Shown: positions 15,845-52,663, counted from the first letter of the stretch. The stretch is 64,000 bases of DNA from Patescibacteria group bacterium (GCA_038062895.1 JBBTWJ010000005.1:67715-131714), one strand, 5' to 3'. Made by a program: numbers and translations. Notes: a model not told the origin generated them from the letters alone.

Positions 15845-15902
15845 ATGTGATGAGCACGTGATAAAATAATCTGATTAGCGCGTGACGTGGGCAGAAGGAG
15901 GC

Positions 15903-15920
15903 GTGGATAACTTATCCACA
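15903..15920. promoter_or_regulatory. Back-to-back inverted DnaA boxes GTGGATAAC/TTATCCACA upstream of dnaA (oriC/autoregulatory region)
   Basis: Read directly. Confidence 0.75.
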
Positions 15921-15937
15921 TCCTAGAAAGTTTTACT

Positions 15938-18814
15938 ATGATTGTCAAGGGCAACATAAAAAGGTTTTTACAACAAGCCCTATCTGTTTTTCAAAACAAT
16001 GGAGAAGTTGTTATTTTTTTCTTCTTTCTTCTGGCGTCTTTATTTTTAGGAGACGGGAAGCAGCCGCTTGTCGATGTGTGGTGGGCGTTGGGGATTCTGA
16101 CGATGTATGGGGCGCGGTATTATCAAAGGGGCAAGCTCGATCTCCAGCCACTCTCCCGCCCGACTGGATTTTTGTGGTCGGCGCTTATCGTGTATTTCAT
16201 TATATTGATTCCTTTTTCCGATAGCGCGGGATATTCTATCAGCGCAACAATGCGACTGATTGAGGGATATTTGGTCTATGTGATGTTTCACGCGGTTGCT
16301 TCAGAGCCCCGCGGCAACGTCTCAACAGCGAGCCCCCTCAAGGGGAGTCCAGTTGATTTGTTTGCCCGGGGACTTCTATTTGTTGGGGTAGTAGCAACAA
16401 GCGCTTCATTTGTGTTTCTTCTCTACCCTTCCTTTGCCCGGCTTTTGCCGCCCATGAACCTGCTTTATGCCAACTACGGACACAACCATCTGGCAGATTT
16501 GTTGTTATTTATCTTTCCCGTCGCGATTGGGTTGGTTGAAAAGAAAAAAAACACTTGGGTGTTTGGGGCGCTTGGGTTATTTAGTGTTGGCATGCTTCTC
16601 ACCTTTGCCCGCGGGGCGTGGGTTCTTCTTGTTTTTTACCTTTTATTTCTTGTCGTAGGAAGCAAAAGTCAATTAATAAGAAGGGTTGGGCTGTCTGTCG
16701 CGGCGGCTTCTGTCGCGGCCCTCCTCACTGTTTCTCTTGTTTCTCTTCGTGGAGCACCACAGGGCAGCGGCTTAATGGCGAGACTTGCGAGCCAGACTCA
16801 AAAATCATCGCTCCTGCAGGACGGGCGGTGGGAGTACTGGGGGCAATCCATTGAGGCGATAAAAGAGCGTCCCCTTTTTGGGAGCGGCCCGGGGACGTTT
16901 TATTTGGAGTCGAAACGGCTACAGTCGCGCCCGAATTCGTGGTCATGGTTTGCCCATAGCTTTCCGCTGCAAACAACAACAGAAATTGGATTCGTGGGGA
17001 CATTAATTTTTTTGTTTTTGATTTATATCATGCTTCGAGAAGCATGGTTTGGCTTGTCATCAACCAAAGACAACGACGGTGCGCCGCTATTACTATCAGG
17101 GGCGGTCCTAGTTTTTTTCTATGGATTTTTTGAGTTCACCATGGATTATGTCGCGGTCTGGATACTGCTTTGTGCGACACTTGGCTTGTTAATTGAACAT
17201 GATGCCAGCATTCATAAGGAGGGATCAACGCGTGGAGCCACTGAAATTGCCCTGATTGTGTTGGCGGCATTTTATTTTTCGTCTCTCGGTAGCATTGTGG
17301 CCACAGCAGCAAACAATAAATCATTTGCGTTTGGACTGGCCCCATATAACGCTGGCGCCGCAAAAGACGCGCTTGCTTCCCAAGGGCCCATGCAAATTAC
17401 GGCGCTGACCGGTAGGATTTTAGCTTTTTTTCATAAAGCCAACCCGGAGATTTTTTCATTGCTTGCGGCCGCGGAGAATGATGTGCTTCGTAATGCGCGC
17501 GCGCGCGAAACTCTAATTGAAATCGATCCCTGGGGGAAAACAGCATTTGAAGCGGCAAAGAATTTAATTCTACAAGGGTCGTGGGACCGGGCCGGATTAA
17601 TAATTTCTTCCAAACAGGGACACGAGGAAAACTACGCAGAACGCAAAGAGCTTTCCGGTTTAATGCTTGATCTGGGAGATGGACTTTATAAAGCGGGAAG
17701 ATGGGCCGAGGCGGGACAATGGTATATGCGCGCACAAGAAGAAGACGCGTGGGCGCTTAACCGGCATGAACCGGCATTCCTCCGGTTTCGTGCGAAACCC
17801 CAGGAGGCGCTATTCTTTTTTGACAATCTGATCCCAACCCCTGGTAATTATTTGGGTAAACATAGAGACGCCTACGCTCGTGAGTGGCTTAGTGCGCTGG
17901 TTGAAACCATTCGATCGGGGGAATCCGCCGATGTGGCCAAACACGTTCGTGCAATCGGATTGCTCGCTCCATGGATGAAAAATCAACTATGGAAAGATGT
18001 TGGATTACTGCTTGTGGATCAATCAAAAAATGATGAAAATAACGGAAATTATTCTGCGGCATCAGAAAAAGCCCTGTTAGTCTTTGCGCTATATCATGTA
18101 TTTCCTGAAAATCTGTCTAATCTTGATTGGGAGCTACGTAAAAAGGCCTCGATAGAGATGATGGAATTGGGAAATGTTGTCGCGTCACGCGACCTCATCA
18201 TCACAGAAAAATTGCAGGAGGCCGCCATGGATATGGTCTCATGGGTCGGGCGGTATGCACCTTCGTGGTATGAAGATCTGAATTCAAAGAAAACGACAGC
18301 AGAATTGCTTATGGATTATCTTGATAGCCCCAACAGCAAAGTTGGAAATTGGGCAAACAAAAGTCGCACACATGCGGCGATATTGTTGATAGAAAAACTT
18401 ATTGACGAGGGCAATCCTAAAGATGTTTATAGTTATGCAAAACAAATGACCGCCGTGAATGAAGTTAATTATGAAAGACGAAATAATCTTGTCGTTCGTC
18501 TTCAAAACAAAATAGATAGTTTATTGCTCGCAGGCAACGCGTCGGATGCACAACATCTTATGCGGTCTATGAAATTACTATTACCGGACGATTACTGGGT
18601 ACAAGCGCAAGAGGGATATTTTTATCTCGCGGCAGGTAACGCCGGAAAAGCGAAAGAAGCCTTTGCGGCGTGTACAACATCCAGGCCGCCGGGTCATAAA
18701 GACTGCACGTTGGGACTCGGGCAATTACATGGAACAACATTTTCAAAAACTAGATATCAGCAAATATCTTCTATTTTACAAAAAAAGAAACGGTGGCAAG
18801 ATTTTACCCGGTAA
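15938..18814 (+). CDS. O-antigen ligase (Wzy_C)-like polytopic membrane domain fused to a long C-terminal helical/TPR-like repeat domain
   Basis: About 10 TM helices in the first ~430 aa. Helical repeat region thereafter. Confidence 0.6.
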   Translation: MIVKGNIKRFLQQALSVFQNNGEVVIFFFFLLASLFLGDGKQPLVDVWWALGILTMYGARYYQRGKLDLQPLSRPTGFLWSALIVYFIILIPFSDSAGYSISATMRLIEGYLVYVMFHAVASEPRGNVSTASPLKGSPVDLFARGLLFVGVVATSASFVFLLYPSFARLLPPMNLLYANYGHNHLADLLLFIFPVAIGLVEKKKNTWVFGALGLFSVGMLLTFARGAWVLLVFYLLFLVVGSKSQLIRRVGLSVAAASVAALLTVSLVSLRGAPQGSGLMARLASQTQKSSLLQDGRWEYWGQSIEAIKERPLFGSGPGTFYLESKRLQSRPNSWSWFAHSFPLQTTTEIGFVGTLIFLFLIYIMLREAWFGLSSTKDNDGAPLLLSGAVLVFFYGFFEFTMDYVAVWILLCATLGLLIEHDASIHKEGSTRGATEIALIVLAAFYFSSLGSIVATAANNKSFAFGLAPYNAGAAKDALASQGPMQITALTGRILAFFHKANPEIFSLLAAAENDVLRNARARETLIEIDPWGKTAFEAAKNLILQGSWDRAGLIISSKQGHEENYAERKELSGLMLDLGDGLYKAGRWAEAGQWYMRAQEEDAWALNRHEPAFLRFRAKPQEALFFFDNLIPTPGNYLGKHRDAYAREWLSALVETIRSGESADVAKHVRAIGLLAPWMKNQLWKDVGLLLVDQSKNDENNGNYSAASEKALLVFALYHVFPENLSNLDWELRKKASIEMMELGNVVASRDLIITEKLQEAAMDMVSWVGRYAPSWYEDLNSKKTTAELLMDYLDSPNSKVGNWANKSRTHAAILLIEKLIDEGNPKDVYSYAKQMTAVNEVNYERRNNLVVRLQNKIDSLLLAGNASDAQHLMRSMKLLLPDDYWVQAQEGYFYLAAGNAGKAKEAFAACTTSRPPGHKDCTLGLGQLHGTTFSKTRYQQISSILQKKKRWQDFTR

Positions 18815-18817
18815 CAA

Positions 18818-19972
18818 ATGAGACCAAAAAATTTTTTTATTGGCCAATTGGCAATATCGATGCTTATAAAGAGAGGGCTTCTAGTGGTGTCGGCAATTTT
18901 AGGTGTAGCAGGGTCGTTTGTTGCTATAAACACAATCCTTGAGATCACAAATATAGGCATGTCCCCTGTTTATTCTGATTGGACGCTTGATAGAACCATT
19001 TATTCGCCGCGATATATTTATTGGGGGAAAAATTACTGTGAGTTGTTCCCTCAGAACTGCGAAGCGCCGGAAGAGGAGCTTGTCACAAATAAGCCAGAAG
19101 TTTTTAATAGCCAGGGTTTAAGCGATAAGGAATGCAAAAAAATTTTATTTCTTGGCGATTCTTATACGTTTGCCCCTTGGACAAAACGAGGGGAGTCTTA
19201 TGCTGCCATATTTTCGAAGCTGTACGCTTCTGAAAAAAATCAGTGCGTGGTGTTGTATCGGGTGGCGACAGGAGGAGTTGGAAATGACCAGGAGTTGGCG
19301 CGGTTTATCGATGTTGTCGAGCGGCTTCGTCCAAATATCGTCGTATGGCAATTTTATGAGAACGATTTATTTGAAAACGTTGTTGCCGAGTTATTTTCAG
19401 TAAAAAACGAAACGCTTTACAGAAATAACGCATATTTAAACATAAGATTTCTCGGTGGATTTATTAATCAACATGTCCCCCTCGTAAGGAACACCGCGAT
19501 AGGAAAACACCTTATGTTTTTGGGAGAAACAAATGATGTTTTTCGTGTTTGGCCCACAAATCCTTATAACCAGGAGCAAGTAATTGTCTATAATCAGAAA
19601 AAAGTAGTTAAAATGTTGGATTATATGGATAGTCTTGGTAAATTATATCAATTTACCAATTTCACCACCCTGGCCCCGGTGGAATGTGGGATTGTTCAAA
19701 AATATCCTTGCCAAGAAGGTAGCATGCGTTTGCACCAAGTCTTGAAGGACATCCTCCTTACCAGGAGTAATTATCTCAGCATGGAAACGCCATCGGGAGA
19801 CAACAATATTCTTGGAAGCCAGATTGACAGAGATGAAGCAGGCGAGGGCGAAGGTCTTTTTAACGTTGTTGATGATAAGAATCCGCCGGGGGCTCGACAC
19901 CTGTCTGTCAAAGGGAATAAAAAATTTGGTACCATATTTTATGAAAATTATCGATCAAAAAAGGGACTGTAA
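18818..19972 (+). CDS. Membrane-anchored SGNH/GDSL-type hydrolase-like protein
   Basis: N-terminal TM. ILFLGDSYTFAP (GDS(x) block I motif). Confidence 0.5.
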   Translation: MRPKNFFIGQLAISMLIKRGLLVVSAILGVAGSFVAINTILEITNIGMSPVYSDWTLDRTIYSPRYIYWGKNYCELFPQNCEAPEEELVTNKPEVFNSQGLSDKECKKILFLGDSYTFAPWTKRGESYAAIFSKLYASEKNQCVVLYRVATGGVGNDQELARFIDVVERLRPNIVVWQFYENDLFENVVAELFSVKNETLYRNNAYLNIRFLGGFINQHVPLVRNTAIGKHLMFLGETNDVFRVWPTNPYNQEQVIVYNQKKVVKMLDYMDSLGKLYQFTNFTTLAPVECGIVQKYPCQEGSMRLHQVLKDILLTRSNYLSMETPSGDNNILGSQIDRDEAGEGEGLFNVVDDKNPPGARHLSVKGNKKFGTIFYENYRSKKGL

Positions 19973-20742
19973 TCGCGAAGCCCATGACGCAGTTTTTGCC
20001 AAAGCGGCTTGACCAGTATTGCTAACATAAAATGAATATTACCGATCGCATACCGATACCAAAGCCTTCGTGGGTTTTGACAAAGACGGTAGAGCCATTC
20101 GAGGCCCAACCGTTGCACCCGTGGGTGTGCCTGTTTTTCTACTCCGGCTAATAGATTAAAAGCAGCACCGACTCCGATTAACGTGTTAGCATTTATTTTA
20201 TTGTGATTATTAATCATCCACAACTCTTGGTGAGGACAACCTAACCCCACAAACACCACGTGAGGTTTATGTTTATTGATTTGATTAATAATTTGACCGT
20301 TTTTTTTCTTACTAAATATTTTTACCGGTGTATCTAATGATCCGACGAGTCTAAGTTTTGGAAACAGAAGAGCAAGACGTGAAATCATTGCGGCACCTTG
20401 TCCAAGAGAGCCGCCCAAAAGGAAAACTTTCCAATTATTTGATTGTGCAAGGCTACACAGTTTCAACATTAATATGGGGCCATACACCCGTTCAACGTGT
20501 TTACATCCATGTAATTTTAGCAACCAAACCAAAGGCATTCCGTCTGGTGTTACAAGGGTTGCCTTATTAACGCCGTCTAATAATTTAGGATTGTTTTGGC
20601 ATTCCACAACGAGGTGAACGGCAGCAACGCAAATATACCCCTTTTTTCTTAACGTGATCACTGATTCAATCAGGCGAAGACAAGAATGATAATTGATTGC
20701 CGAAATATGAACACCGAGGATGTTTTTGAAGGGAACCGTCAT
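19948..20742 (-). CDS. WecG/TagA/CpsF family glycosyltransferase (GT26)
   Basis: Length and sequence pattern (VFLLGG..., VFVGLGCPHQELW, LEWLYRL) characteristic of the GT26 family. Confidence 0.8.
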   Translation of the reverse strand: MTVPFKNILGVHISAINYHSCLRLIESVITLRKKGYICVAAVHLVVECQNNPKLLDGVNKATLVTPDGMPLVWLLKLHGCKHVERVYGPILMLKLCSLAQSNNWKVFLLGGSLGQGAAMISRLALLFPKLRLVGSLDTPVKIFSKKKNGQIINQINKHKPHVVFVGLGCPHQELWMINNHNKINANTLIGVGAAFNLLAGVEKQAHPRVQRLGLEWLYRLCQNPRRLWYRYAIGNIHFMLAILVKPLWQKLRHGLRDYSPFFDR

Positions 20743-21993
20743 AGATCTTATTGTTGGAACAATGGTATTATACCTGACAAACGTATGAATATTCTTATGC
20801 TTACCTACGAGGTGGTTGATGAGGGGGGGAGTTTTATCCGTAGTTTTTCTTTGGCAAAAAAATTGGTGAAATTAGGACACACAGTCACGTTGTTGGCATC
20901 AAACAAAAAGCCGGGTTTATTTGAAAGAAAAACCAAACGTCATGGAGTTGTTGTCATAGAAATTGCCTGTCCCCTACCCCATCGTATACGACACAACGGA
21001 ACAAGCCCGTTTCAAACAATTGGTAGGACTGTTCATGTTTTGCGTCACCGCTATGACGTGGTACATGGATTTGGTCACCGGCCATCCGTGTTTATTCCGG
21101 CATTCATTCATAAGTTTCTCTACCGGCGACCATATGTCGCAGATTGGGCTGACCTTTGGGGATGGGGAGGGCTTGGGAGTTATCGTGGGGGCCTGTGGGG
21201 AACGACAGTTGGATGGCTGGATGATATTTTGGAAAAATTTGTATATCGTAACAGCGATGGTGTAAGCGTCATAAGCCGTGCTCTTTTTCAAAGAGCGCGG
21301 CGATTCGGCGTTTTACAAAGCCACACAGCGATCGTTCCGCCAGGGTCAAGCGTTGACGAAATTGTGCCGCTTTCAAAAGCAACTCAACGTAAAAAATATG
21401 GATTTTCTATCCGTGATCATATATTGGTTTATGTTGGCAACGCACCATATGACGCCCGCCTGTTGGGTAAAGTGATTGTAGAAGTGATGACGCAAGACGA
21501 CAGGGCCCGCGCAATTATTATTGGTCGACACATGGAAGAATTTGATAGTGTTGTGAGAATCAGCGGATTTAAGAAAAGAATACGGCATTATGGTTTTATT
21601 GCTCATGATCACATTTCTACTTTAATGGCATGTGGAGACGTGATGGTGCTGCCATACACGAATCGAGAGATAAATACCAATCGTTATCCGAATAAAATTG
21701 GTGACTATCTTGCTGCCGGACGTCCGACTGTTGCCAACGCAACGGGAGACCTGGCGAGGTTATTCAGGGACTATCCCATTGGAGAGACAGCACCGGAAGA
21801 ACCCATCGGATTTGCTCGCGTTATTTTACGGTTGTTAACAGACGCCAAAAAAAGGAGGGTTTTAGGACAAAATGCACGCAGACTCGCGGAAAGAGAATTT
21901 TCATGGAGACGGTCTGCTGAATCGTTAGATGCGTTTTACCTGTCAATTCTCGAGGAGTACCATTCGATGTCAACGTTACGGAGCCCGGCTTGA
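20686..21993 (+). CDS. Glycosyltransferase family 4/1-like (likely true start near 20785, MNILMLTYEV)
   Basis: N-terminal GT-B fold pattern (ILMLTYEVVDEGGSF...LVKLGHTVTLLA). C-terminal GT1/4-like region. The annotated 5' end overlaps the convergent GT26 gene, so an internal start is more plausible. Confidence 0.7.
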   Translation: MIIDCRNMNTEDVFEGNRHRSYCWNNGIIPDKRMNILMLTYEVVDEGGSFIRSFSLAKKLVKLGHTVTLLASNKKPGLFERKTKRHGVVVIEIACPLPHRIRHNGTSPFQTIGRTVHVLRHRYDVVHGFGHRPSVFIPAFIHKFLYRRPYVADWADLWGWGGLGSYRGGLWGTTVGWLDDILEKFVYRNSDGVSVISRALFQRARRFGVLQSHTAIVPPGSSVDEIVPLSKATQRKKYGFSIRDHILVYVGNAPYDARLLGKVIVEVMTQDDRARAIIIGRHMEEFDSVVRISGFKKRIRHYGFIAHDHISTLMACGDVMVLPYTNREINTNRYPNKIGDYLAAGRPTVANATGDLARLFRDYPIGETAPEEPIGFARVILRLLTDAKKRRVLGQNARRLAEREFSWRRSAESLDAFYLSILEEYHSMSTLRSPA

Positions 21994-26371: not shown

Positions 26372-26392
26372 AGCCGGTATTAATTTTTTTGT

Positions 26393-41924: not shown

Positions 41925-41975
41925 AGTTGGTACTAATTTATACCAATATATACATCGTTGTCAAGGGGCAATATA

Positions 41976-43803: not shown

Positions 43804-43858
43804 TATAGTATGAAAATAAATCCAAGCATTTATAATTTTTTGCACGACGGAAAACAAA

Positions 43859-43885
43859 CCTCCGCCCCGGCGGGGTATTTTTTTG
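43859..43885 (+). terminator. Intrinsic terminator, copy 2 (CCGCCCCGGCGGGG + T-run)
   Basis: Read directly. Confidence 0.6.
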
Positions 43886-44128
43886 GGTATGAAAAAAATT
43901 TTCTACACTAAACACGCGGAGGAAATGCTTGCCGCGCGCGGCATTGACAGGAACGTGGTTGAATCGTGTCTTTTGCAACCGTCCAGGATTATACCGGCAA
44001 GAGATAATAATTTTGCCTACTTGAAAGATTTTCATACCAACATTCTCAAGGTGATCGTGGCAGAAGAAAAAGAAACGCTGGTAGTCATAACGGTCTATTG
44101 GATTGCAAAAGATCGGATGACCCAGTAA
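43883..44128 (+). CDS. DUF4258-like putative toxin
   Basis: KIFYTKHAEEMLAARGI N-terminus. Paired with the DUF2283-like ORF. Confidence 0.5.
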   Translation: MGMKKIFYTKHAEEMLAARGIDRNVVESCLLQPSRIIPARDNNFAYLKDFHTNILKVIVAEEKETLVVITVYWIAKDRMTQ

Positions 44129-44139
44129 ACTATGCTCAT

Positions 44140-44352
44140 ATGAACGTCACTTTTGACCCGAAAGCGGATGCCATGTATATCTATTTTTCTGACAAAAAGA
44201 GTACGAAAACGCTCGAGTTTCAAGATGATCTTCTCGTGGACTACGCTGGAGAGGAAATGGTCGGCATAGAAGTGCTCGATGTGTCACAAAAGGTTGCCAA
44301 GAAAGACATCACGTCGCTCACGTTGAGTATTCCAGCGGTATACGCATCATAA
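44140..44352 (+). CDS. DUF2283-like putative antitoxin (start at internal Met MNVTFDPKADAMYIYF)
   Basis: VTFDPKADAMYIYF matches the DUF2283 N-terminus. The ORF-track start at 44098 overlaps the upstream gene. Confidence 0.55.
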   Translation: MNVTFDPKADAMYIYFSDKKSTKTLEFQDDLLVDYAGEEMVGIEVLDVSQKVAKKDITSLTLSIPAVYAS

Positions 44353-44475: not shown

Positions 44476-47286
44476 ATGATACCTGTTGATTCAGAAGTTC
44501 GCATTGGCTCTTGGCCACCAATTCCCATTGGTTCTATTCTTTCTGACGAGGTGTTGAATCCAATTACGTTTACAGACGCAGCGGCAATCATGGACCCTTT
44601 GGCGACAGCCATTGTTCCCTCTCGATTGGATAACCACAATTTGATTAAATCCCCAGACATAACATTCCTTAGTGTGGACAACATTCTTGCGTTGCCTAGC
44701 GTGAGAGAGCAAATTCAAAAAGCAGAAACCGTCATTCAGATAAACAAAGAATGGAGCGAGGCTTGGGGGAAAGATGGAATAAGCAGATGGAATCGCTGGG
44801 ATGGAACCGAATCATACACACAACCTATCATCGATCCAAACATTATCCAGATCGCCGTGGCAGAGATGGTCGGAAGACACCAGGCAGGCTATGCGTCAGA
44901 CGCAGAGACTGTAGATCATAACACCGTTGTCACTTTACACGCGAATTATGATGCCATACAGACGCAGATCGCAGAATTTGAAAATAAGCACCCCGATCCA
45001 GAGATGTGGTCCAATAGAGAAAGAATCCAACATGACAGACTGTTAAGAAATAGCGATAGAGCAGCCGTGGCGTGGGGGGAAGCGGATATCCAGCCTGAGC
45101 GCCGTATTCTAGAAAGTCAAACAGCAAAGCTTGGTGATTTATCCCGCGCAGCAGAACAGGCGGTTGCTGACGCTTCATGGTATAGCGACGGTATTAATCG
45201 AAGTGCTGACGGGTACCAGCACGTAGCCAAAGCCGGAGAGAGATCTGTTTTATTAAGCCATCAAAGTTTTAGTGCGATGGAAGCCATGCGATTAGGAGAA
45301 AAAGCTGATGAGGCGTTATCCGCGGTCGATACGCAGATAAAAGAGAATGCAAAGGATGAGAATAATGCGGGATGGGCCTACATGATGGCAGGATTACCGT
45401 GGGCCGGCATAGTTCTAAATAACAATTTACCTGCATGGAAAAGGGCGATATTTGGTGCTGGAGCATTTGCCACCGCTTTGTGGTCTTGTGTCCCTCTGGT
45501 TCCCGGTCAAGGCCCTAAACCGACCCCGACGGAGCCTTCTATGGGCTTGGTAAATGATGGATTTGTGATCGCTCCTGACATCCGCAGTCAGATCGTCCAG
45601 GCGGGAATCAATGTTGATGGGTGCCGGAAGGATGAACGATTCTTTGCCGATTTAGCGACAAATCATCCGGGCACGTTAGATCAGTTTAATACGCTTTCAC
45701 AGGTTGCCTACAAAGCATATGAAAAGTCAGGAACAGGCGCAGGTATCGGTGCGATCCAATGCGAGTTAAGCAAGGATGGCAAAAATGTGCTTGTCTATTA
45801 CACGACTCGCGATTGGAAGAAGATCCTTATTCCCACGCTGGAGGGGCTTCTCATTCCAGGAAGAAAGACTGATAGCGGGGCGCTGGAGGTCATCGATCAA
45901 CCATCTGCTACGCCGATTGTCCCGGACACGAGGGCGGTTCGCGTTCCTGATGCTATTCCTCCCGCAGGTGGAGCAATACCAGAGCTGTTGCGTGCTGGTG
46001 AGCCCGCAGAAGTAGCGAGATTGAAAGCGTCGTTGGTTAAATTTGGAATAAATCCGGACGACGTTAATATACAATTTTTTGACGATCCTACAGGATCCTA
46101 CCAGTGGGCGCACATCATAACAGCAAAAGATGGGTCCTATGTGGCGCTCCCCCATCTTACTAATGGGCAAATTGCTTCACGGCCGGATTTCACTTCATCA
46201 TACGGCGAAGTGAAATTTGATGGATGGACTAAAGTGCAGATCCCGAAGGGAGTTTCTGGTAATATCGTCGGAGTTTTTGTAGAGGGAAACGATTTACCTC
46301 AAGTACTTATCATAGATAAAACTCCGGGAGCAGATGGAAAGATGAAGGTGTTAGCCGTATTTGATCCGGTAAAATCAGAATGGAAGAAAGCAGATGGAGG
46401 CAGTCTAGTCCCACCAACTCCAACCCTTGCTCCTGTCCCCACCCTCGTGCCGATCTCGACGCCGGAGGTGCGGAATTGGGTGATAAACCCACCAAAGAAT
46501 TTTGCGGAGTGTTGTGCAAAATTTGATGAAAAAACAAATAATTTTGCAACGGTGAAGGCTAAAGAGCTTATGAAGACCTATCTCTCAACCCACGACTTGC
46601 AAGCTGATTTAGCAAAAGCAAAGCCTTATTATCGGGCCCCCGGTTTCTTTTCAGAAGCCGATGTAAATGACGAGGGGAGATTAGCGGATACAAATGTTGG
46701 TCGACTTCGCAGCGCGATTCATATTGGTACTTTTGCTGTGGATCTCCCTCACATGAATTTTGGAACAGAAAAAGATATCACGATTCATGCTGATGTCGGG
46801 GTGTATTTGCCTCAAGATAATCCGGATCCAGACAAACCCATAATTGCCGTTAAGCAGTTTTCATTTGTATATACGGGGTCAGGTAAAAAAATAGCATTTG
46901 GTATGGATTGGGTGTTGAAAGAGACCATCGTTGATGGGAAAACCGTGATGAACATTAACAGTGATAGGACAGCAGAGCCGATTGGTCAGGCCGTGAGCTT
47001 ATATGAGCTTGTCGCTTCGGCTGATGCTGGAATGTATGAAAGAGGTCTTGATCCGAAATACAAAAATGATTCGAGATATAGCCCAATCGCTGCAGTTGAA
47101 GGCAAGTCGCTCATGGATATATTTGATATGGTCGGTCCGGTCCAGCTTACGAAAGAAATGACCGATGCACAGGCCGCTGGCGGTAAGGAGGCAATAGCAA
47201 AATTGCTTGGTGAAAAGCTGGATAAGCGCAAAAGCATTTTGCTTCATGCTGTCATTATCAGAACTGTCCCCGGATCTAAATATTAA
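44476..47286 (+). CDS. Large (936 aa) hypothetical protein with one central TM helix
   Basis: ORF track. TM AIFGAGAFATALWSCVPLV. No catalytic motif recognised. Confidence 0.55.
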   Translation: MIPVDSEVRIGSWPPIPIGSILSDEVLNPITFTDAAAIMDPLATAIVPSRLDNHNLIKSPDITFLSVDNILALPSVREQIQKAETVIQINKEWSEAWGKDGISRWNRWDGTESYTQPIIDPNIIQIAVAEMVGRHQAGYASDAETVDHNTVVTLHANYDAIQTQIAEFENKHPDPEMWSNRERIQHDRLLRNSDRAAVAWGEADIQPERRILESQTAKLGDLSRAAEQAVADASWYSDGINRSADGYQHVAKAGERSVLLSHQSFSAMEAMRLGEKADEALSAVDTQIKENAKDENNAGWAYMMAGLPWAGIVLNNNLPAWKRAIFGAGAFATALWSCVPLVPGQGPKPTPTEPSMGLVNDGFVIAPDIRSQIVQAGINVDGCRKDERFFADLATNHPGTLDQFNTLSQVAYKAYEKSGTGAGIGAIQCELSKDGKNVLVYYTTRDWKKILIPTLEGLLIPGRKTDSGALEVIDQPSATPIVPDTRAVRVPDAIPPAGGAIPELLRAGEPAEVARLKASLVKFGINPDDVNIQFFDDPTGSYQWAHIITAKDGSYVALPHLTNGQIASRPDFTSSYGEVKFDGWTKVQIPKGVSGNIVGVFVEGNDLPQVLIIDKTPGADGKMKVLAVFDPVKSEWKKADGGSLVPPTPTLAPVPTLVPISTPEVRNWVINPPKNFAECCAKFDEKTNNFATVKAKELMKTYLSTHDLQADLAKAKPYYRAPGFFSEADVNDEGRLADTNVGRLRSAIHIGTFAVDLPHMNFGTEKDITIHADVGVYLPQDNPDPDKPIIAVKQFSFVYTGSGKKIAFGMDWVLKETIVDGKTVMNINSDRTAEPIGQAVSLYELVASADAGMYERGLDPKYKNDSRYSPIAAVEGKSLMDIFDMVGPVQLTKEMTDAQAAGGKEAIAKLLGEKLDKRKSILLHAVIIRTVPGSKY

Positions 47287-47341
47287 AGCACAGGTTATTA
47301 CTTCATAAGTAATCCTCTTCCGGTAATTCTCTTCCTCTCTT

Positions 47342-47947
47342 GTGTTTTTCTCCCAAACTTGTTCTAATGGTTGTAGAGATATGCCCACAAAAAAATTAGG
47401 CTTATTCCTTCTTGGTCTGCTTGCAATTAGTGTTCTTACTTTTGTTATTGTCGGGCTACGGAAACTTAGATCGCTTCCTCCTCCACGGCCCATCTTCGTA
47501 ACGGAGGCAGATCGGAATACCCCGACGAATCTTCTGGATAAGAAGCAGGATAGAAATTATGTAACCACGCTTTCCAAGTCTCCGAATATATTCCAGATCC
47601 AGGGGGTGATAAGCGGGATTACGAGTGGGTCATTTACTCTATGGTCGCAGAAAAATTATTCCGTCTCGACGAATGATAAAAGTGTGGTGGAGTGTCGGGA
47701 TAAGTTCATAAAGATGGCCGATGGAAGTTTAGCTCTGGCGTACTCTACGTTTCTGGACCTTTCTAAATATGTGGCAACACTTCAAACGAATAGAGATACG
47801 TTCCTTAAACAAGGGAAAATATTTCTGTATAAGGATGTATATAAGAAAATAGAGCCGGATACATGGGTGACGGGGGTTTTTCAGGAACAGGAAGAAAAAG
47901 AGAAGAAGTATCTATTGGATGTAGTACTCGTCTATGGGTGTAAATAG
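47342..47947 (+). CDS. Membrane-anchored hypothetical protein
   Basis: TM LGLFLLGLLAISVLTFVIVGL. Likely start MPTKK at 47381. Confidence 0.45.
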   Translation: MFFSQTCSNGCRDMPTKKLGLFLLGLLAISVLTFVIVGLRKLRSLPPPRPIFVTEADRNTPTNLLDKKQDRNYVTTLSKSPNIFQIQGVISGITSGSFTLWSQKNYSVSTNDKSVVECRDKFIKMADGSLALAYSTFLDLSKYVATLQTNRDTFLKQGKIFLYKDVYKKIEPDTWVTGVFQEQEEKEKKYLLDVVLVYGCK

Positions 47948-49661
47948 TCCTATCAGAACCTTCATAGTGATGATAATAGGGTGTATTTTGGCATCGTTTT
48001 TTTTCGCGACAAGCGTATCGGCTCAAAATTTTTGTTCGGCTAACTGCGGGGAAACATCGACATCGTGTACGTCAGTAAATCAGGTATATTGTACGCAACA
48101 TCAAGCGTGGGTAATGTTTTATTGTAATGCCTATTCAGAGCCCGGGTGTGTAGATGGCGAGCGATTAGTGAACGTAGCTGATCCTGATTGCATCATAAGT
48201 CCTGCCCCTTGTGTCCAGGAAATATGTTGCACCTACTGCGTTCCCGGAGATTGCGGGACGGCGGCGCCGACGGCGTCACCCACGCCCGGCGCGACCGCCA
48301 CGCCGGGGCCGTCACCTACGCCAGGACCGACGAGCGGTGGGGTGCCTCCGCCATCAGGCACTCCCGCGCCGAGCTGCACCGAGGGAGGACCGTACATCAG
48401 CGCGTGGTCGGTGTGTTCCGGAAGTCCGGCCAAGCACAGTAGGACGGTGGGATATGATTGCTATACAGGCTATATAGAGACGGTAGACTGCACCGGCGCC
48501 ATCCAGGCAAAAGCCGTGCAGGTCTCGGCTGCCGATACATCTTGTGCTGCTGTGGCAGCCTCAACAAATGGCATAACCGGTACGAGTCATGCCTTCACCC
48601 CCGGGTCAGCGAGCCAACCCACGGCCCAGGTCCAGTCAGGAAATAATTACGTGTCCTTCTTCCCTGTCGTTGGCGGGAGCTACACCATCGCGTCTACAGC
48701 GCTAAGCGACTATACCTTGGCCCGTGCCTGCTGGAGCAGAGCGCTCAATGCCCCATTAAGCGGAGAAGCATTATCATCTACCCTCTCTGTTCCGACGGAT
48801 GGCGATACACTGACCTGGCGGTTGGGCTACACGTTCTCCGGTCCGTGGGTGCAAACCGGCGGGGGCGGGAATGTGTATGGGGCGGGGGCGGTGACGTCTC
48901 CGGTTTCGGCGCTTGCCGTTCCCAGATTATTCAGTGTGGATGGCAGCGGCGGGACGCCGGGACTGGTCACCTACGGCACGAGCTATGACTTCGACTCCAA
49001 TCCGCTCCTGACAGGGGAAACGTATGTCTCCTCCGCCAACTGGCTTGCTAATGATGCATACACGAACATAAATTACTATGACTTTTTTTACCGCAAGCTC
49101 GGGGGGATGACGATAGAAAATGCCACAGATGCCGTGGGGGCCGCGATAGACAAAGGTGCTATGACCAAACCCGCAACGGGCACCTATTACCTAAAAGGTC
49201 CGGTCACGACGAGCAGCATCGGTTGGGTGATGGGTGCAACAGAGAAGACCATTATCATCATAAATGAATCTACTCCAGGAGCGGGAGATGCAGGTCTGAC
49301 GATAGGAGGACCAATCACCATAACCGCGGGCGGATTTGTAGCATTCATCGTCAACGGAAATATCACGGTTGCCTCCTCCGTGGGTGGACTGTATACCTTG
49401 GACACACCAACCGTTGAAGGTGTTTACGTAACGAGCCCGACGGGGACCCTCGCCACATCGTTAGGAGCGATCGGCAAAGAGCGGCTCGTGGGGCAAGGGA
49501 TATTCGTAGCCGGCTCCTTCCTCCTTCAACGAGATCTGGTGAGTGTGGTCGCAAATACCACGACGGCTGCGGAATTATTTCTTTACAATCCCCGCCTGCT
49601 CATTAGTATGCCCGATTCGATGAAAGACGTACCAATAACTTGGGAGGAAGTAGCACCATAG
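47934..49661 (+). CDS. Secreted cysteine-rich protein with a Pro/Thr/Gly linker
   Basis: Signal peptide IVMIIGCILASFFFATSVSA. Cys-rich block. APTASPTPGATATPGPSPTPGPTSG linker. Confidence 0.55.
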   Translation: MGVNSPIRTFIVMIIGCILASFFFATSVSAQNFCSANCGETSTSCTSVNQVYCTQHQAWVMFYCNAYSEPGCVDGERLVNVADPDCIISPAPCVQEICCTYCVPGDCGTAAPTASPTPGATATPGPSPTPGPTSGGVPPPSGTPAPSCTEGGPYISAWSVCSGSPAKHSRTVGYDCYTGYIETVDCTGAIQAKAVQVSAADTSCAAVAASTNGITGTSHAFTPGSASQPTAQVQSGNNYVSFFPVVGGSYTIASTALSDYTLARACWSRALNAPLSGEALSSTLSVPTDGDTLTWRLGYTFSGPWVQTGGGGNVYGAGAVTSPVSALAVPRLFSVDGSGGTPGLVTYGTSYDFDSNPLLTGETYVSSANWLANDAYTNINYYDFFYRKLGGMTIENATDAVGAAIDKGAMTKPATGTYYLKGPVTTSSIGWVMGATEKTIIIINESTPGAGDAGLTIGGPITITAGGFVAFIVNGNITVASSVGGLYTLDTPTVEGVYVTSPTGTLATSLGAIGKERLVGQGIFVAGSFLLQRDLVSVVANTTTAAELFLYNPRLLISMPDSMKDVPITWEEVAP

Positions 49662-49951
49662 TACCCCATGTCCGACTCTCCCTCGACTGCGCTCGGGATG
49701 AAGCACATGCGGGATGTCCCGATTACATGGGAAGAGGTTGCGCCATAGTTTTCAATCACGTGGCCCGCCTTCGTCCCTCAACTAGGCTCGGGACTACGGA
49801 CGGGTGAAAGAAGAAGTGGCTCCGTAACATAAGAATGTACGGAGTAAACGCCGTAAAAGAAGGTACGAGAAGTACGAAAGGTACGGGAAGCCCGGCGGGT
49901 GAGCTAATCATTAAATACTGCCAATAGGAAGCGCTTGATTGTGGCTTAATT

Positions 49952-50170
49952 GTGATTTGTTCTGTGGGGAAGTACAATAGAAATGGCATGACCCTCAAAG
50001 AACGCTTCTACAAGGTCTATAATAATTTACCACTCAATCTGCGGGAAGAAGTGATAGTGGTTTTGAGTAACGAGCCGATTACCTGGAAAGTGGCAAAGCT
50101 GGAAGTTGATCAGGATACAGAGCTTTCTCGTATCATTTTGGAAAAACTTGATGGGCTTGGCATGCTATGA
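49952..50170 (+). CDS. Small hypothetical protein (first gene of a 3-gene insert)
   Basis: ORF track. Overlaps the next ORF by 4 nt. Confidence 0.4.
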   Translation: MICSVGKYNRNGMTLKERFYKVYNNLPLNLREEVIVVLSNEPITWKVAKLEVDQDTELSRIILEKLDGLGML

Positions 50171-50403
50171 GAGATATGTATAACAAAAAGAAAGTGACAG
50201 ACGAGGAAATCCGTCAATTGGTCGTTGCCCGGCTCCGGTCGTTTCCTTCGGGCAAGAAGATATCCATCGGTTCCGACGGGGAATTTTCCAAAGAGGAGCT
50301 TATCGATCGCGTGAGTAAAAACGATCCGGTGGGAAATAAGATAATTCAGATACAGCTTTCCTACCTCCAATCGTTCAAAGAAGGCCTTATTTTTGAAGAA
50401 TAA
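50167..50403 (+). CDS. Small hypothetical protein (second gene of the insert)
   Basis: ORF track. Translational coupling on both sides. Confidence 0.4.
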   Translation: MRDMYNKKKVTDEEIRQLVVARLRSFPSGKKISIGSDGEFSKEELIDRVSKNDPVGNKIIQIQLSYLQSFKEGLIFEE

Positions 50404-51049
50404 GTCCATGGTTATCACCCGTCCCAACCACGACATCACCACCAACTACCTCTCTTTTTGGAGTCAATTGGTTATTGATTACGCCGACAAACGGTCCTTG
50501 CGGGTCATAGATCTATGTGGGTCGCGAGCGACGCGAAAAGAATTCGAAAGCGTTTTGCGCAAGCGCGGTGGCCAGGCGTTTATATTTCTTAACGGCCACG
50601 GCAGCGCAGAGAAGGTTGCAGGGCAAAACGATGAAGTGCTTGTGGAGGTCAGAGGAAACGATGATGTATTTTTCGGTACTGTCGTGTATGCCAGATCCTG
50701 TAGTTCTGCGGCAGCACTCGGGCCAAAGAGCGTGGCAAAGGGAGCGATTGCCTACCTTGGGTACACAGACGATTTTGTATTTTTTATTGAAGACGAATGC
50801 ATGACCCGGCCACTTAAAGACAAAACTGCGCGATTGTTTCTCGAACCATCGAACCAGGTGGCAATTGCGATACTTAAAGGACATTCTGTGGGTGAGGCGA
50901 ATGACCTATCGAAAAACATGACAAAACACACCATACAGACTCTTATGACGAGTGAAACTCCGAAAGAGGAGAAAGAACTGATTCCTTATTTACGCTGGAA
51001 CGTCATCCATCAGGTGTGCCTTGGAGACCAGGGTGCCCGTCTGACGTAG
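50393..51049 (+). CDS. Hypothetical protein with a caspase-like (clan CD) His...Cys arrangement
   Basis: AFIFLNGHGS then about 43 aa later TVVYARSCSSAAALG (hydrophobic strand-HG ... hydrophobic strand-xC). Confidence 0.35.
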   Translation: MKNKSMVITRPNHDITTNYLSFWSQLVIDYADKRSLRVIDLCGSRATRKEFESVLRKRGGQAFIFLNGHGSAEKVAGQNDEVLVEVRGNDDVFFGTVVYARSCSSAAALGPKSVAKGAIAYLGYTDDFVFFIEDECMTRPLKDKTARLFLEPSNQVAIAILKGHSVGEANDLSKNMTKHTIQTLMTSETPKEEKELIPYLRWNVIHQVCLGDQGARLT

Positions 51050-51405
51050 AAGAACGGCTCGTGGGACAGGGAATTTTTGTCGCCGGCTCTTTCCTCCTCC
51101 AGCGGGATCTCGAGAGCATCACCCAAAACGATACAACGGCGGCCGAACTTTTTCTCTACAACCCCCGCCTCCTCATCGCCATGCCCGACTCTCCTTCGAC
51201 TCTCTCGTCGATAAGAGCGCGATCGCTCAGGACCATGGCCCCTCGATTTCGCTCGGGACTTCGCATGCGGGATGTGCCGATCACGTGGCCCGCCTTCGTC
51301 CCTCGACTAGGCTCGGGACTACGGACGGGTGAAAGAAGAAGTGGCACCATAGGGGCAAATACTACTCCCCGCGGAGCGGGATCCACGATGCTGTATTTCC
51401 GATAA
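51016..51405 (+). pseudogene. Degenerate duplicate of the 3' end of the 47934-49661 gene
   Basis: ERLVGQGIFVAGSFLLQRDL...AELFLYNPRLLIAMPDS...MRDVPITW parallels the C-terminus of the 575-aa protein. Followed by a near-identical ~67-nt segment (51287-51353 vs 49757-49825). Confidence 0.45.
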
Positions 51406-51568
51406 AAACCGGAAACAGCATCGGGACAATTCTATTAATCATCAAATACTACCAATAAAATACGGAAAGAAATTACTAGCGGGAGAGCCAGTAACGAAAT
51501 GAAATATCTGGGGCAATGACAGACAGGAATTTGACGGCGGAACGGAGTGTGACATATACTTACCCGTA

Positions 51569-51823
51569 ATGAAGCAAGACGTACGCATCACCACAGATCC
51601 GATGGTTTGCCACGGGAAGCCGGTGATCGCCGGAACGCGGGTGATGGTGTGGCAAATCCTTGAGTCTCTTGAATCCGGTTTGACGGCAGGTGATGTGCAG
51701 AAAGCGCATCCAACGCTTCCAAAGGGATCGGTGGAAGCGGCACTCCACTATGCTGCAGAACGGGTCAAATCCATAGAATATGTCCCCTTTGCGCCGCACC
51801 AACAGCCCTACGTTTTTGCTTGA
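51569..51823 (+). CDS. DUF433-family protein (putative antitoxin)
   Basis: ITTDPMVCHGKPVIAGTRVMVWQILESL. Confidence 0.7.
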   Translation: MKQDVRITTDPMVCHGKPVIAGTRVMVWQILESLESGLTAGDVQKAHPTLPKGSVEAALHYAAERVKSIEYVPFAPHQQPYVFA

Positions 51824-51914
51824 TGAAAACGTGAATGTACTACACGATCTTCGTGGCGAGATACAGAACCGATGTATTGTATTAGGTGAGCGAGGATATA
51901 CTATCGTTTCATAA
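51816..51914 (+). pseudogene. Truncated DUF5615-like partner (LLDENVNVLHDLRGEIQNRCIVLGERGYTIVS-stop)
   Basis: Frame read directly. Compare the intact pair at 56167-56738 (LLLDAAFARP...). Confidence 0.4.
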
Positions 51915-52567
51915 TGGAAAACAAGTACGTGCATATTCATATCCTGCGCTCCTCAGGGAGATTTGAGCCGTATTTTAAAATTCTTGAACGAACAATACAA
52001 CGCGCTGTTGAGAAAACAGCGGACTATATTTCTCTCCATCCAATTGATATTGTGGTGTATGACGATTCGCGCCAGGTGATTCCGGGGTTTGGGCATGGGG
52101 GGCGAACCAACAATCCGCATACAATGTGCGTATTTCTTGATCCGGCTTTTCCTGATTTTGAACATACCATCAAAAAAGAAATTCCAAAAACCATTAGTCA
52201 TGAGCTTCACCATGCGGTGCGATGGAAGGCTGTGGGATATGGGATGACACTCCTGGAAAGATTAGTGAGTGAAGGACTCGCAATATGTTTTGAACAGGAT
52301 GTATGGGGAGGAACGCTTTCTCCCTGGGCTACTGCACTGAGTGGTAAATCCTTGGCGGATATACATGAAAAGGCAAAATCGGAATATACCAGTACAACAT
52401 TTCATCATGGCCGTTGGTTTTATGGCACGGGTGATCTCCCTCGCTGGGCGGGATATTCCCTTGGTTATCAGCTTGTCGGCGAGTACCTGAGGGAGCATGC
52501 TGATAAAAACGCAGCAATGCTAGTTAGCACGCCTTTGCAGTCAATGATTGCAAGTGGATTAAGATAA
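51914..52567 (+). CDS. HExxH putative zinc-dependent protease (DUF2268-like)
   Basis: TISHELHHAVRW. Confidence 0.5.
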   Translation: MENKYVHIHILRSSGRFEPYFKILERTIQRAVEKTADYISLHPIDIVVYDDSRQVIPGFGHGGRTNNPHTMCVFLDPAFPDFEHTIKKEIPKTISHELHHAVRWKAVGYGMTLLERLVSEGLAICFEQDVWGGTLSPWATALSGKSLADIHEKAKSEYTSTTFHHGRWFYGTGDLPRWAGYSLGYQLVGEYLREHADKNAAMLVSTPLQSMIASGLR

Positions 52568-52663
52568 TTTAGGAAACGTCAATAGAAATTTTTCTGCCGG
52601 AATTTTTGCAGGGTGGGGATGACCCTTGTTCCGGAGCTCCTTTTCCCGTATACTTAAAGAGTT

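Follow-up and report, generated by a model that had tools for sequence, protein, structure and literature searches.

The rpmH and dnaA operons normally lie back to back at the bacterial replication origin. Flexible surface-glycan loci occupy fixed core positions: O-antigen and capsule loci, for instance, have conserved genes on either side, and the 'glycotype' hypervariable region HVR2 of SAR11 sits inside the rRNA operon.

The window that we analysed, a stretch of 64,000 nucleotides, comes from the genome of an uncultured Candidatus Gottesmanbacteria (CPR/Patescibacteria) member from Hainich groundwater. It shares with the canonical rnpA-rpmH/dnaA-dnaN cluster the dnaA-dnaN adjacency, the DnaA boxes, the skew switch and a divergent rpmH-rnpA-yidD-yidC-jag operon, but here 36.8 kb separate the two operons and HicBA is found between rpmH and rnpA. 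The interval resembles the flexible surface-glycan loci in having a complete assembly set, the flanks that relatives have, a lower GC content and no integrase, with content and allele divergence well above core divergence. It differs from them in being located at the replication origin, in being thick with toxin-antitoxin and Abi modules, and in the single version seen here among assembled Hainich contigs. We regard it as a flexible glycan locus of the ordinary kind, unusual in its position. As in defence islands and AbiE systems, two AbiEi/AbiEii pairs, MNT (PDC-S09) and a VapBC-type pair are clustered here, and the SNase genes match a PADLOC candidate. However, these modules are scattered singly in a biosynthetic locus and form no contiguous island. 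For Patescibacteria, an origin-proximal T4SS-dnaN-dnaA-rpmH/rnpA neighbourhood, with rpmH and rnpA as frequent neighbours, is described in the retrieved passages of PMC12102498. The left flank here, with T4CP, PrgI and VirB4 beside dnaN-dnaA, matches that description, whereas the glycan-filled split of many Gottesmanbacteria is not mentioned in those passages.

Flanking operons and the likely origin

On the minus strand, dnaA (14471–15844; Pfam Bac_DnaA, Bac_DnaA_C and DnaA_N) is adjoined, as at every related locus, by dnaN, encoding the DNA polymerase III beta clamp (13172–14281; all three domains of Pfam DNA_pol3_beta). The T4SS genes to their left are kept in nearly all related loci. On the plus strand, rpmH (52664–52801), a 45-aa ORF with 75–100% identity to the L34 genes of relatives, is followed by HicB (52807–53055), HicA (53048–53269) and the Pfam-assigned rnpA (53276–53689), yidD (53700–53969), yidC (54055–54915) and jag (54975–55433). 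This right-boundary operon (52664–55433) is itself broken up by HicBA, and the same insertion is present in relatives L108 and L026. These coordinates confirm the earlier note, which had placed dnaA-dnaN on the minus strand and the rpmH operon on the plus strand from 52.66 kb, and had put the split between them at about 37 kb. The measured distance is 36,819 bp (15845–52663), so rpmH and dnaA are not the immediate neighbours that they are in the canonical cluster, while the dnaA-dnaN adjacency, the DnaA-box cluster and the GC-skew switch are all present.

There are three perfect TTATCCACA DnaA boxes in the 64 kb. Those at 14401 and 14413 are in the dnaA-dnaN spacer and that at 15912 is upstream of dnaA, so that all of them flank this gene, on either side, as had been claimed. 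One-mismatch boxes occur at 14434 and 15902. In all, there are 29 matches with at most one mismatch, where shuffles gave 14.5 ± 3.4; none falls in 47541–53452, a stretch that includes the rpmH spacer. The dnaA-dnaN spacer (14282–14470) contains two perfect boxes and one single-mismatch box together with further GTGGAAAA/GTGGATAT-like repeats, all in the same orientation, and the GC skew switches sign there, between 13.5 and 14.5 kb. Most likely oriC lies in or beside this spacer, an origin function suggested by the boxes and the skew. The left boundary of the interval is a 93-bp divergent spacer (15845–15937) with a back-to-back DnaA-box pair at 15902–15920.

Gene content and composition of the interval

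From the dnaA end, the interval begins with a plus-strand gene (15938–18814) for a 958-aa membrane protein with a Pfam Wzy_C (O-antigen ligase/polymerase-like) domain; its homologue in the nearest genome has 53% identity. A variable glycosyltransferase/polymerase module of low GC follows (18818–27322), with Pfam matches to GDSL-like, WecG, GT4, GT2, Wzy_C (488 aa), DUF4330, NTP_transf_5 and GT2 in turn; its identity to relative L091 is just 38–48%, whereas that of neighbouring genes is 65–84%. The sulfation/export module (27517–34804), also assigned by Pfam, encodes a PqqD-like protein, a UbiA-family protein (570 aa), a bifunctional ATP sulfurylase/APS kinase (29574–31298) and a ScmC-like protein, then a 93-aa ORF, a sulfotransferase, a methyltransferase and a Wzt-like ABC ATPase. 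It is syntenic in L091 at 65–82% identity, with the exception of the methyltransferase (51%), and is patchy among other relatives. A minus-strand insert (34825–37435; Pfam) with genes for a PDDEXK_3 nuclease-fold protein, a 287-aa protein of unknown function, AbiEii and AbiEi lies between the two ABC transporter genes. Beyond it are the Wzm-like ABC-2 permease on the minus strand and an RGP-family protein on the plus strand (37483–39269; Pfam), the latter adjoining dnaA in many relatives. On the right, the glycan locus ends with Bac_transf, an initiating phosphoglycosyl transferase (42640–43236, plus strand; Pfam), which is the glycan gene closest to rpmH in L017 and L052 (directly adjacent) and in L088 and L090 (about 6 kb). 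The glycan assembly set is complete, with Bac_transf, WecG, GT2 (two), GT4, Wzy_C (two), ABC2 and ABC_tran, and these Pfam assignments agree with the glycan/sulfation locus proposed earlier.

Toxin-antitoxin and abortive-infection genes are interspersed with the glycan genes. A MazE-like antitoxin and a PIN toxin form a VapBC-type pair (39331–39998, plus strand; Pfam), and L094 has an 80% identical pair. Next is an SNase-AbiEii-AbiEi-SNase array (40028–42542, minus strand; Pfam, PADLOC and repeats), whose two SNase genes are 62% identical, and 95% identical over an 85-nt 3' end; an SNase gene is beside Bac_transf in L091 and L094 too. There are thus two pairs of adjacent AbiEi and AbiEii genes, with PADLOC E values for AbiEi and AbiEii of 1e-40 and 2e-24 in the insert between the ABC genes and of 7e-33 and 8e-34 in this array. 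Each is beside an SNase gene, as expected for the two AbiE-SNase modules reported before, and their mutual identity is just 30%. By gene adjacency and PADLOC, both are predicted type IV toxin-antitoxin/abortive-infection systems. The small TA-type genes at 43394–44352 (plus strand) are MNT, which matches PADLOC PDC-S09, with a 41-aa ORF that is a probable HEPN remnant, and a DUF4258-like/DUF2283 pair. At 51569–52567 (plus strand; Pfam), a DUF433 antitoxin-like gene and a 44-aa ORF, probably a DUF5615 remnant, precede a DUF2268 Zn-protease-like gene, the final gene ahead of rpmH, of which L108 has a remnant. We count four intact and two degraded TA-type pairs, the latter being MNT/HEPN remnant and DUF433/DUF5615 remnant, where at least five pairs had been announced.

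Between these small genes lies a conserved three-gene module of unknown function (44476–49661, plus strand; 936, 201 and 575 aa). Inspection of the N-termini showed a membrane anchor in the 201-aa protein and a signal peptide in the 575-aa protein, in keeping with the secreted proteins noted earlier; the homologues of the latter in relatives belong to the DUF7305 family. Homologues of the module adjoin rpmH in L086, L088, L090, L021 and L062. The small ORFs that follow (49755–51405) include a 218-aa gene, 86% identical to its L086 homologue, and a copied C-terminal fragment of the 575-aa gene (51016–51405), which substantiates the duplicated gene fragments of the earlier note. A 72-nt repeat with 96% identical copies starts at 49755 and 51280. 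The 201-, 575- and 218-aa genes are 69–86% identical to L086, and core genes are at 65–95%; judged by these identities, the rpmH-proximal genes are conserved like core genes.

The GC content is 41.4% over 18.0–35.5 kb (17.5 kb), against 51.7% in the dnaA/T4SS flank and 46.7% in the rpmH flank, and is low as judged against the flanks. The AT-rich 19–35 kb stretch seen by eye is therefore real. The tetranucleotide profile of the low-GC stretch correlates with that of the rpmH flank at r = 0.84, while the dnaA/T4SS flank gives r = 0.73 with the rpmH flank and 0.56 with the low-GC stretch. The GC skew is positive, the expected sign, over the whole interval, though most interval genes are on the minus strand; the plots that had been proposed as a check show one low-GC stretch but no disturbance in the sign of the skew. 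No integrase, recombinase or transposase was found among the Pfam matches for the scanned interval ORFs, no tRNA in the window, and no repeat of 40 nt or more bounding the interval or the low-GC stretch.

The junction in related genomes

Synteny was compared in about 58 related genomes and an outgroup. The dnaN/type IV secretion side of dnaA is fixed among these relatives, and the upstream side is variable. The rpmH gene is about 100 bp from dnaA in four genomes and the outgroup, and 1.9–8.6 kb away in eight, where MurD-like, SecA-like or surface-protein genes intervene; two (L017 and L052) have an inverted rpmH block. In about 35 genomes, glycan genes lie upstream of dnaA, mostly directly beside it, without rpmH inside 10 kb. 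About 30 of the 58 or so have a Wzy_C homologue upstream of this gene, some with RGP, and four have DUF4330. Sister genomes in clades with 100% bootstrap differ in state, with adjacent, short-gap, inverted and glycan-filled junctions intermixed. The deep nodes of the DnaA + DnaN tree are weak (bootstrap 15–43), so it fits one ancient split with later re-closures as well as repeated independent insertions.

In three relatives with DnaA identities of 89%, 70% and 69%, dnaA and rpmH are on one contig with gaps of 32.8, 44.2 and 38.2 kb, respectively. The dnaA end matches in all three (Wzy_C/RGP), as does the rpmH end (ABC_tran-ABC2, then Bac_transf and three conserved unknown genes). For the nearest genome, the comparison covered the interval on either side of its middle 14 kb or so. 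Since end architecture is the same across gaps of 32.8–44.2 kb, the split is old and shared, and the proposal that 37 kb of accessory DNA had split the junction in this genome is not supported. As to whether relatives all have the same content with uniform composition, the backbone and the gap are shared, but sub-modules are patchy and composition is uneven here.

Within the shared frame, content varies. A 4.25-kb segment beside dnaA in the three nearest relatives (L006, L007 and L050) is missing here, the breakpoint being the 93-bp spacer at 15845–15937. L091, with YidC about 80% identical, shares 26.4–43.2 kb, mostly at 65–84%. Glycosyltransferase/Wzy identities are 38–53%, against 65–95% for core genes; weak constraint instead of replacement could account for the low Wzy_C identity. 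On the 258-kb contig of the nearest genome, the best matches to the ATP sulfurylase/APS kinase and the ABC-2 permease are not close (about 58% and 69%, respectively), while ABC-2 is found at 81–89% identity on about 30 other contigs; the alleles of ABC-2 and of the sulfation genes run counter to DnaA relatedness. The sulfation genes have 55–57% identity to many phyla, and the cargo between ABC2 and ABC_tran in L091 and L094 is unlike that here. Among the assembled Hainich contigs of the population, no alternative version of the locus was found, only one being seen.

The suggestion of an origin-proximal hotspot for gene acquisition is thus partly sustained. The junction changes repeatedly in this class, its states being interleaved among well-supported sisters, and the TA/Abi cargo, the sulfation module and the 4.25-kb segment vary between close relatives. 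However, the housekeeping-type genes at the junction in other genomes point to rearrangement rather than acquisition.

History of the split

Was the interval acquired as a unit? A 37-kb genomic island gained recently between dnaA and rpmH, here or in an immediate ancestor, would fit the low GC (41.4%) at 18–35.5 kb, the many toxin-antitoxin/Abi genes, the dnaA-rpmH adjacency in the outgroup and four Gottesmanbacteria, and the patchy sulfation genes with their 55–57% identity to many phyla. It is nevertheless very unlikely, given the 33–44 kb gaps with the same ends in relatives whose DnaA is as little as 69% identical, the core-like identity of the rpmH-proximal genes, the lack of integrase, transposase, tRNA and bounding repeat, and a skew of correct sign throughout; the same-architecture gaps in three relatives largely refute it. 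A gap would also arise if the true origin had remained near rpmH or elsewhere and the dnaA-dnaN-T4SS block had been relocated. That blocks around the region do move is seen in L017 and L052, where the arrangement is inverted, but the skew minimum and every perfect DnaA box are at dnaA-dnaN, and the rpmH spacer is within the box-free stretch, which makes this highly improbable. The source is a metagenome-assembled genome, and a chimera of unrelated contigs from assembly or binning has to be considered. The dnaA/Wzy_C join, the ABC2 region and the DUF2268/rpmH join are, however, each found in independent assemblies (ENA replicates, Logan and an NCBI MAG) from several samples, and one 33.5-kb Logan contig reaches from the T4SS genes as far as the PIN gene. 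Because the joins recur in this way, we give almost no credence to a chimera.

A purely ancestral gene order, inherited vertically with no special turnover at the site, accounts for the conserved backbone, the consistent GC skew, the absence of mobility genes and the single version in the local population. We think it unlikely, since the junction state differs between sisters in 100%-supported clades, a 4.25-kb indel is found at dnaA, the cargo of the ABC2/ABC_tran gap differs, ABC-2 and sulfation alleles do not track DnaA relatedness, and glycosyltransferase/Wzy identities are 38–53% against about 80% for the core.

We suggest that the interval is probably a long-resident, flexible, mosaic cell-envelope glycan locus at the origin and not a mobile island. 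Its parts would be Bac_transf, WecG/GT2/GT4, two Wzy_C proteins and a Wzm/Wzt-type ABC exporter, with the RGP-family and UbiA-family enzymes, the PAPS-synthesis and sulfotransferase module and, beside rpmH, the three conserved genes for secreted or membrane proteins; the product would be a glycan, presumably sulfated. Probably the locus was already at the dnaA/rpmH junction when several Gottesmanbacteria lineages diverged. Its glycosyltransferase/Wzy genes and sulfation module would then have been replaced or lost between relatives, presumably by recombination, while toxin-antitoxin and abortive-infection modules would build up in its intergenic gaps and small indels would arise at the very promoter of dnaA. 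Elsewhere in the group, rpmH may have come to lie beside dnaA, or other genes between the two, through inversion, relocation or deletion, if the changes ran in the direction that we infer.

A doubtful extension of this is that the junction is a dedicated origin-side cassette site, where homologous recombination swaps modules and TA/Abi genes. As arms for this recombination there would be the highly conserved dnaA and rpmH-yidC genes, the glycan modules exchanged between lineages would include the PAPS-dependent sulfation module that is otherwise rare in the group, and the embedded toxin-antitoxin/Abi modules would move along with the cassettes. If this were so, selection would act on the position at the origin itself, for example through the dosage or the early replication that it gives to an episymbiont's surface and defence genes.

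Origin signals and the dnaA–rpmH distance

The dnaN (13172–14281) and dnaA (14471–15844) genes on the minus strand were identified by Pfam, as were rnpA (53276–53689), yidD (53700–53969), yidC (54055–54915) and jag (54975–55433) on the plus strand. The rpmH gene preceding rnpA is a 45-aa ORF (52664–52801, plus strand), which is 75–100% identical to the L34 genes of relatives. An earlier note on this DNA had put the separation of dnaA and rpmH at about 37 kb, and we find 36,819 bp between the two starts. Several contigs from the Hainich groundwater well H41, including a 224,654-bp ENA contig, encode a DnaA identical to that of the window, and its closest relatives among species-representative genomes are MAGs labelled Candidatus Gottesmanbacteria or Patescibacteria. 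A literature search on dnaA in Gottesmanbacteria found no paper.

Perfect TTATCCACA boxes occur only three times in the 64 kb. Those at 14401 and 14413 are inside the 189-bp dnaA–dnaN spacer, and the one at 15912 is upstream of dnaA, so that perfect DnaA boxes lie on both sides of this gene. Boxes with one mismatch are at 14434 and 15902. The dnaA–dnaN spacer contains additional GTGGAAAA-like repeats in the same orientation, and in the spacer upstream of dnaA two DnaA boxes are arranged back to back. Overall, the window has 29 matches with at most one mismatch, compared with 14.5 ± 3.4 in shuffles; none falls in 47541–53452, which includes the rpmH spacer. The GC skew is negative until about 13.5 kb, positive from about 14.0 kb on, and positive or near zero over the entire interval between dnaA and rpmH (15845–52663). 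Because the DnaA boxes and the change in sign of the skew occur together there, oriC is probably in or adjoining the dnaA–dnaN spacer.

The rpmH operon itself has been subject to insertion. A HicB/HicA pair lies between rpmH and rnpA (52807–53269), and the same insertion is seen in the relative JACREO01 (locus L108, 2003–2465, 82–86% identical) and in locus L026 of another relative (6894–7347, 62–73%). The nearest genome, JAUXTO01, has instead a 23S_rRNA_IVP/bAvd-like gene between rnpA and yidD (its rpmH-side locus L086, 9319–9699). There is a 44-nt inverted repeat of ATTATCCAAT-like units between yidD and yidC (53970–54072), and a 70-nt direct repeat (AAATCCTAAATCCTAA..., 79% identical) follows both yidC (54900–54969) and jag (55433–55502). 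Downstream of nadD is an intact DUF433/DUF5615 pair (56167–56738) that is conserved in two relatives, and a degraded copy is inside the interval (51569–51914). Both relatives have a TIR-domain gene, absent from the window, in the row of NAD-salvage genes, where JACREO01 also has a Y1 transposase. These features of the relatives are at L086 14420–15061 and at L108 8939–9499 and 10616–11431.

Gene content of the interval

The first gene at the dnaA end encodes a 958-aa Wzy_C protein (Pfam). It is followed by genes for GDSL-like, WecG, GT4, GT2, second Wzy_C, DUF4330, NTP_transf_5 and another GT2 protein, then PqqD-like, a 570-aa UbiA-family protein, a bifunctional ATP sulfurylase/APS kinase and a ScmC-like protein, and next a sulfotransferase, a methyltransferase and an ABC ATPase. 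After an insert of PDDEXK_3, a 287-aa protein, AbiEii and AbiEi come an ABC-2 permease and an RGP-family protein, a MazE/PIN pair, the row SNase–AbiEii–AbiEi–second SNase, and Bac_transf. The content from Bac_transf to Wzy_C is a complete ABC-transporter-type glycan assembly set with a PAPS-dependent sulfation branch, the glycan product and its sulfation being predicted from gene families. The set is interrupted by four toxin–antitoxin or abortive-infection modules. The identity between the two AbiE pairs is only about 30%, so these arrived separately and did not arise by duplication. The SNase genes share 62% identity.

Beyond Bac_transf are MNT with a short ORF, probably a HEPN remnant, and a DUF4258-like/DUF2283 pair. 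Genes for proteins of 936, 201 (with a membrane anchor) and 575 aa (with a signal peptide) are also found here, with several small ORFs downstream, among them a duplicated C-terminal fragment of the 575-aa gene. The 936-, 201-, 575- and 287-aa proteins gave no Pfam or PADLOC match. At the rpmH end are DUF433 with a short ORF, probably a DUF5615 remnant, and a DUF2268 protease-like gene. By gene-family content, the inventory in the earlier note was essentially right.

The genes for PAPS synthesis (ATP sulfurylase/APS kinase), the sulfotransferase, the 570-aa UbiA-family protein and the RGP-family protein are at 27517–34049 and 38280–39269. The PqqD-like, NTP_transf_5 and ScmC-like genes (25199–27801 and 31326–32105) could be a peptide-modification sub-cluster, and the JACREO01 copy of the locus also has a radical SAM/SPASM gene (L091 18444–19616); a literature search for ScmC returned nothing but unrelated acronyms. 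Two ORFs of 557 and 367 aa take the place of the 958-aa Wzy_C gene in the 224-kb ENA contig (L001 7031–9907), and on two other contigs the methyltransferase (window 33174–34049) is likewise split (L098 5993–6891; L100 4442–5340). These split ORFs are either frameshift variants or assembly errors.

A probable resident locus in the dnaA–rpmH junction

Is the interval a recently acquired island or a resident locus? The dnaA–rpmH distance could be measured in three large-gap relatives with both genes on one contig. It is 32,842 bp in JAUXTO010000022.1 (DnaA 89% identical), 44,154 bp in CAYUKU010000001.1 (70%) and 38,214 bp in CAZKLT010000002.1 (69%). The last two genomes have, next to rpmH, glycosyltransferase or methyltransferase genes and then ABC_tran and ABC2 on one strand, and Bac_transf, 643–674-aa, 203–216-aa, 525–545-aa DUF7305 and PMT-like proteins on the other strand, with RGP and Wzy_C at the dnaA end. 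This end architecture equals that of the window. The JAUXTO01 comparison covers both ends of the interval, on either side of about 14 kb in the middle; the rpmH-proximal genes are 69–86% identical to those of the window, except for the 936-aa protein (29%). These values are within the range of the core genes of JAUXTO01 (rnpA 65%, yidC 77%, jag 89%, rpmH 95%). JACREO01 (YidC 79–80%, rpmH 100% identical) has a colinear copy of window 21.9–43.2 kb, in which identity is 65–84% for the genes between Bac_transf and the second GT2, these two and the sulfation genes included (methyltransferase 51%), while NTP_transf_5, DUF4330, Wzy_C and the first GT2 are only 38–48% identical. In the L017 genome, Bac_transf–rpmH is directly preceded by a glycan locus that includes a sulfotransferase and an ATP sulfurylase/APS kinase (57% identical), as would result from a single inversion of a window-like order. 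Several lineages thus have a glycan locus splitting the junction, and the large gaps of the relatives with their matching ends show that the split did not occur recently in this genome. Thus, the proposal that 37 kb of accessory DNA had split the junction in this genome is not borne out.

The ORFs of the interval that were scanned with Pfam include no integrase, transposase or recombinase family, and neither a tRNA scan nor Rfam at gathering thresholds returned anything in the window. The interval is not bounded by repeats in a repeat search; those detected were the SNase duplication, the 575-aa gene fragment, and short intergenic repeats near yidC and jag. Most genes at 20–42.5 kb are on the minus strand, yet the sign of the skew is as expected for the right replichore, which fits either long residence or replacement by donor DNA from the same position. 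Independent assemblies show the same joins at each end of the interval and in its middle, which rules out a chimera, and the assembled contigs of this population have only one version of the locus.

The base composition is uneven. The GC content is 51.7% in the left flank (1–15844), 41.4% at 18.0–35.5 kb, 48.3% at 35.5–43.3 kb, 48.2% at 43.3–52.7 kb and 46.7% in the rpmH flank, and GC3 has the same pattern. The AT-rich stretch seen by eye at 19–35 kb is therefore real, as a contrast with the window flanks rather than with the genome-wide average. The tetranucleotide profile of the low-GC stretch correlates with that of the rpmH flank at r = 0.84, and that of the dnaA/T4SS flank at r = 0.56 with the low-GC stretch and 0.73 with the rpmH flank. 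By these correlations, the high-GC T4SS/dnaA side is as much an outlier as the low-GC stretch. The interval is best described as a surface-glycan locus, flexible yet conserved in the lineage, that occupies the divergent dnaA|rpmH junction, and may be likened to O-antigen-type loci held between conserved flanks.

Junction states and turnover among relatives

The 10-kb flanks of dnaA were compared in about 58 Gottesmanbacteria-like genomes (DnaA 63–93% identical), with the window proteins mapped by tblastn. Nearly all of them share the order dnaN–(796-aa protein)–VirB4–233-aa protein–PrgI–coupling protein downstream of dnaA. Origin-proximal T4SS genes are described in Patescibacteria (PMC12102498), and the conserved T4SS–dnaN–dnaA side seen here agrees with that description. 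VirB4 has an in-frame insertion of about 540–610 aa, with no stop codons, in four relatives (L007 15084–18779, L006 9734–13423, L048 15836–19456 and L015 6728–9706), and the window VirB4 (8902–10767) lacks it. In translation, the insertion in L007, the dnaA-side locus of the nearest genome, is in the P-loop region, ends in HN followed by S, and appears intein-like.

Upstream of dnaA, rpmH is about 100 bp away in four relatives (L015, L024, L030 and L037) and in the outgroup L063. It is 1.9–8.6 kb away in eight genomes, with MurD-like ligases, a SecA-like protein, and Big_2 or DUF7305 surface proteins between. In L017 and L052, the rpmH block is inverted and 8–9 kb away, with a DUF4012 protein between it and dnaA. 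In about 30 genomes, the DNA upstream of dnaA has a gene homologous to that of the 958-aa Wzy_C, in most cases as the immediate neighbour of dnaA and in some with RGP too, and rpmH is absent from their available 10 kb. DUF4330 adjoins dnaA in four genomes. A third Wzy_C with a Polysacc_synt (flippase-like) gene follows the rpmH–jag operon (59126–61979), a position kept after jag in nearly all relatives, so glycan genes are on both sides of the operon.

In a neighbour-joining tree of concatenated DnaA and DnaN (100 bootstraps, outgroup included), clades with 100% bootstrap hold mixed junction states. One contains L024 and L030 (adjacent), L022 (glycan beside dnaA), and L062 and L021 (8.6 and 5.0 kb); other mixed pairs are L042 (glycan) with L029 (4.6 kb) and L049 with L048. 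The deep nodes are weak, and the number and direction of the state changes are therefore not fixed. The suggestion of an origin-proximal hotspot holds in that the junction changes often across the class and collects toxin–antitoxin and Abi modules.

The locus itself also turns over. The three nearest relatives, L050, L007 and L006 (DnaA 93, 89 and 88%), have between the dnaA spacer and Wzy_C a 4.25-kb segment with genes for an alkaline-phosphatase-family phosphodiesterase, a 210-aa protein and a sulfatase. This segment is missing from the window, where the break in DNA homology is between 15930 and 16043. In L007, the sulfatase and phosphodiesterase of these close relatives are beside dnaA at 5774–9874. 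Between the ABC transporter genes, the window has PDDEXK_3, the 287-aa protein and AbiE, JACREO01 has a DUF4143 ATPase and an ABC fragment, and CAYHOT01 has AbiE (34–36% identical), two sugar-modifying enzymes and DUF4143 ATPases. Among the best 120 matches to the ATP sulfurylase/APS kinase, about five exceed 57% identity, the named ones being Gottesmanbacteria or Patescibacteria, and a flat series at 53–57% has named members from many phyla; none is on JAUXTO010000022.1 (258 kb). The best 120 matches to the ABC-2 permease include about 30 at 81–89% on other contigs and none on JAUXTO010000022.1, where about 69% at most is possible. The drop in identity from DnaA (89%) to Wzy_C (53%) in L007 had suggested a sharp recombination boundary. 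This reading was dropped because the N-terminal 0.9 kb of Wzy_C has 72% DNA identity, near the 76% of dnaA–dnaN. Homologous recombination within the conserved flanks would be a plausible route for such exchange.

Breaks in dnaA–rpmH synteny and flexible glycan loci, such as SAR11 HVR2 and the O-antigen and capsule loci, are each well known. Their combination in CPR bacteria was not found in our literature searches; it is not surprising, and no new kind of element or mechanism is revealed. The results give a concrete, checkable map of origin-region organisation in one class of CPR bacteria, in which the T4SS–dnaN–dnaA side is fixed and the content upstream of dnaA varies, a surface-glycan locus being usual there. 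Origin prediction and rearrangement analysis in MAGs should not presume that rpmH adjoins dnaA. A full-text literature search found no paper joining Candidate Phyla Radiation, sulfotransferase and polysaccharide, and the gene families of the locus point to sulfated glycans in Patescibacteria. The glycan locus may help to determine how episymbiotic bacteria interact with hosts or phages.
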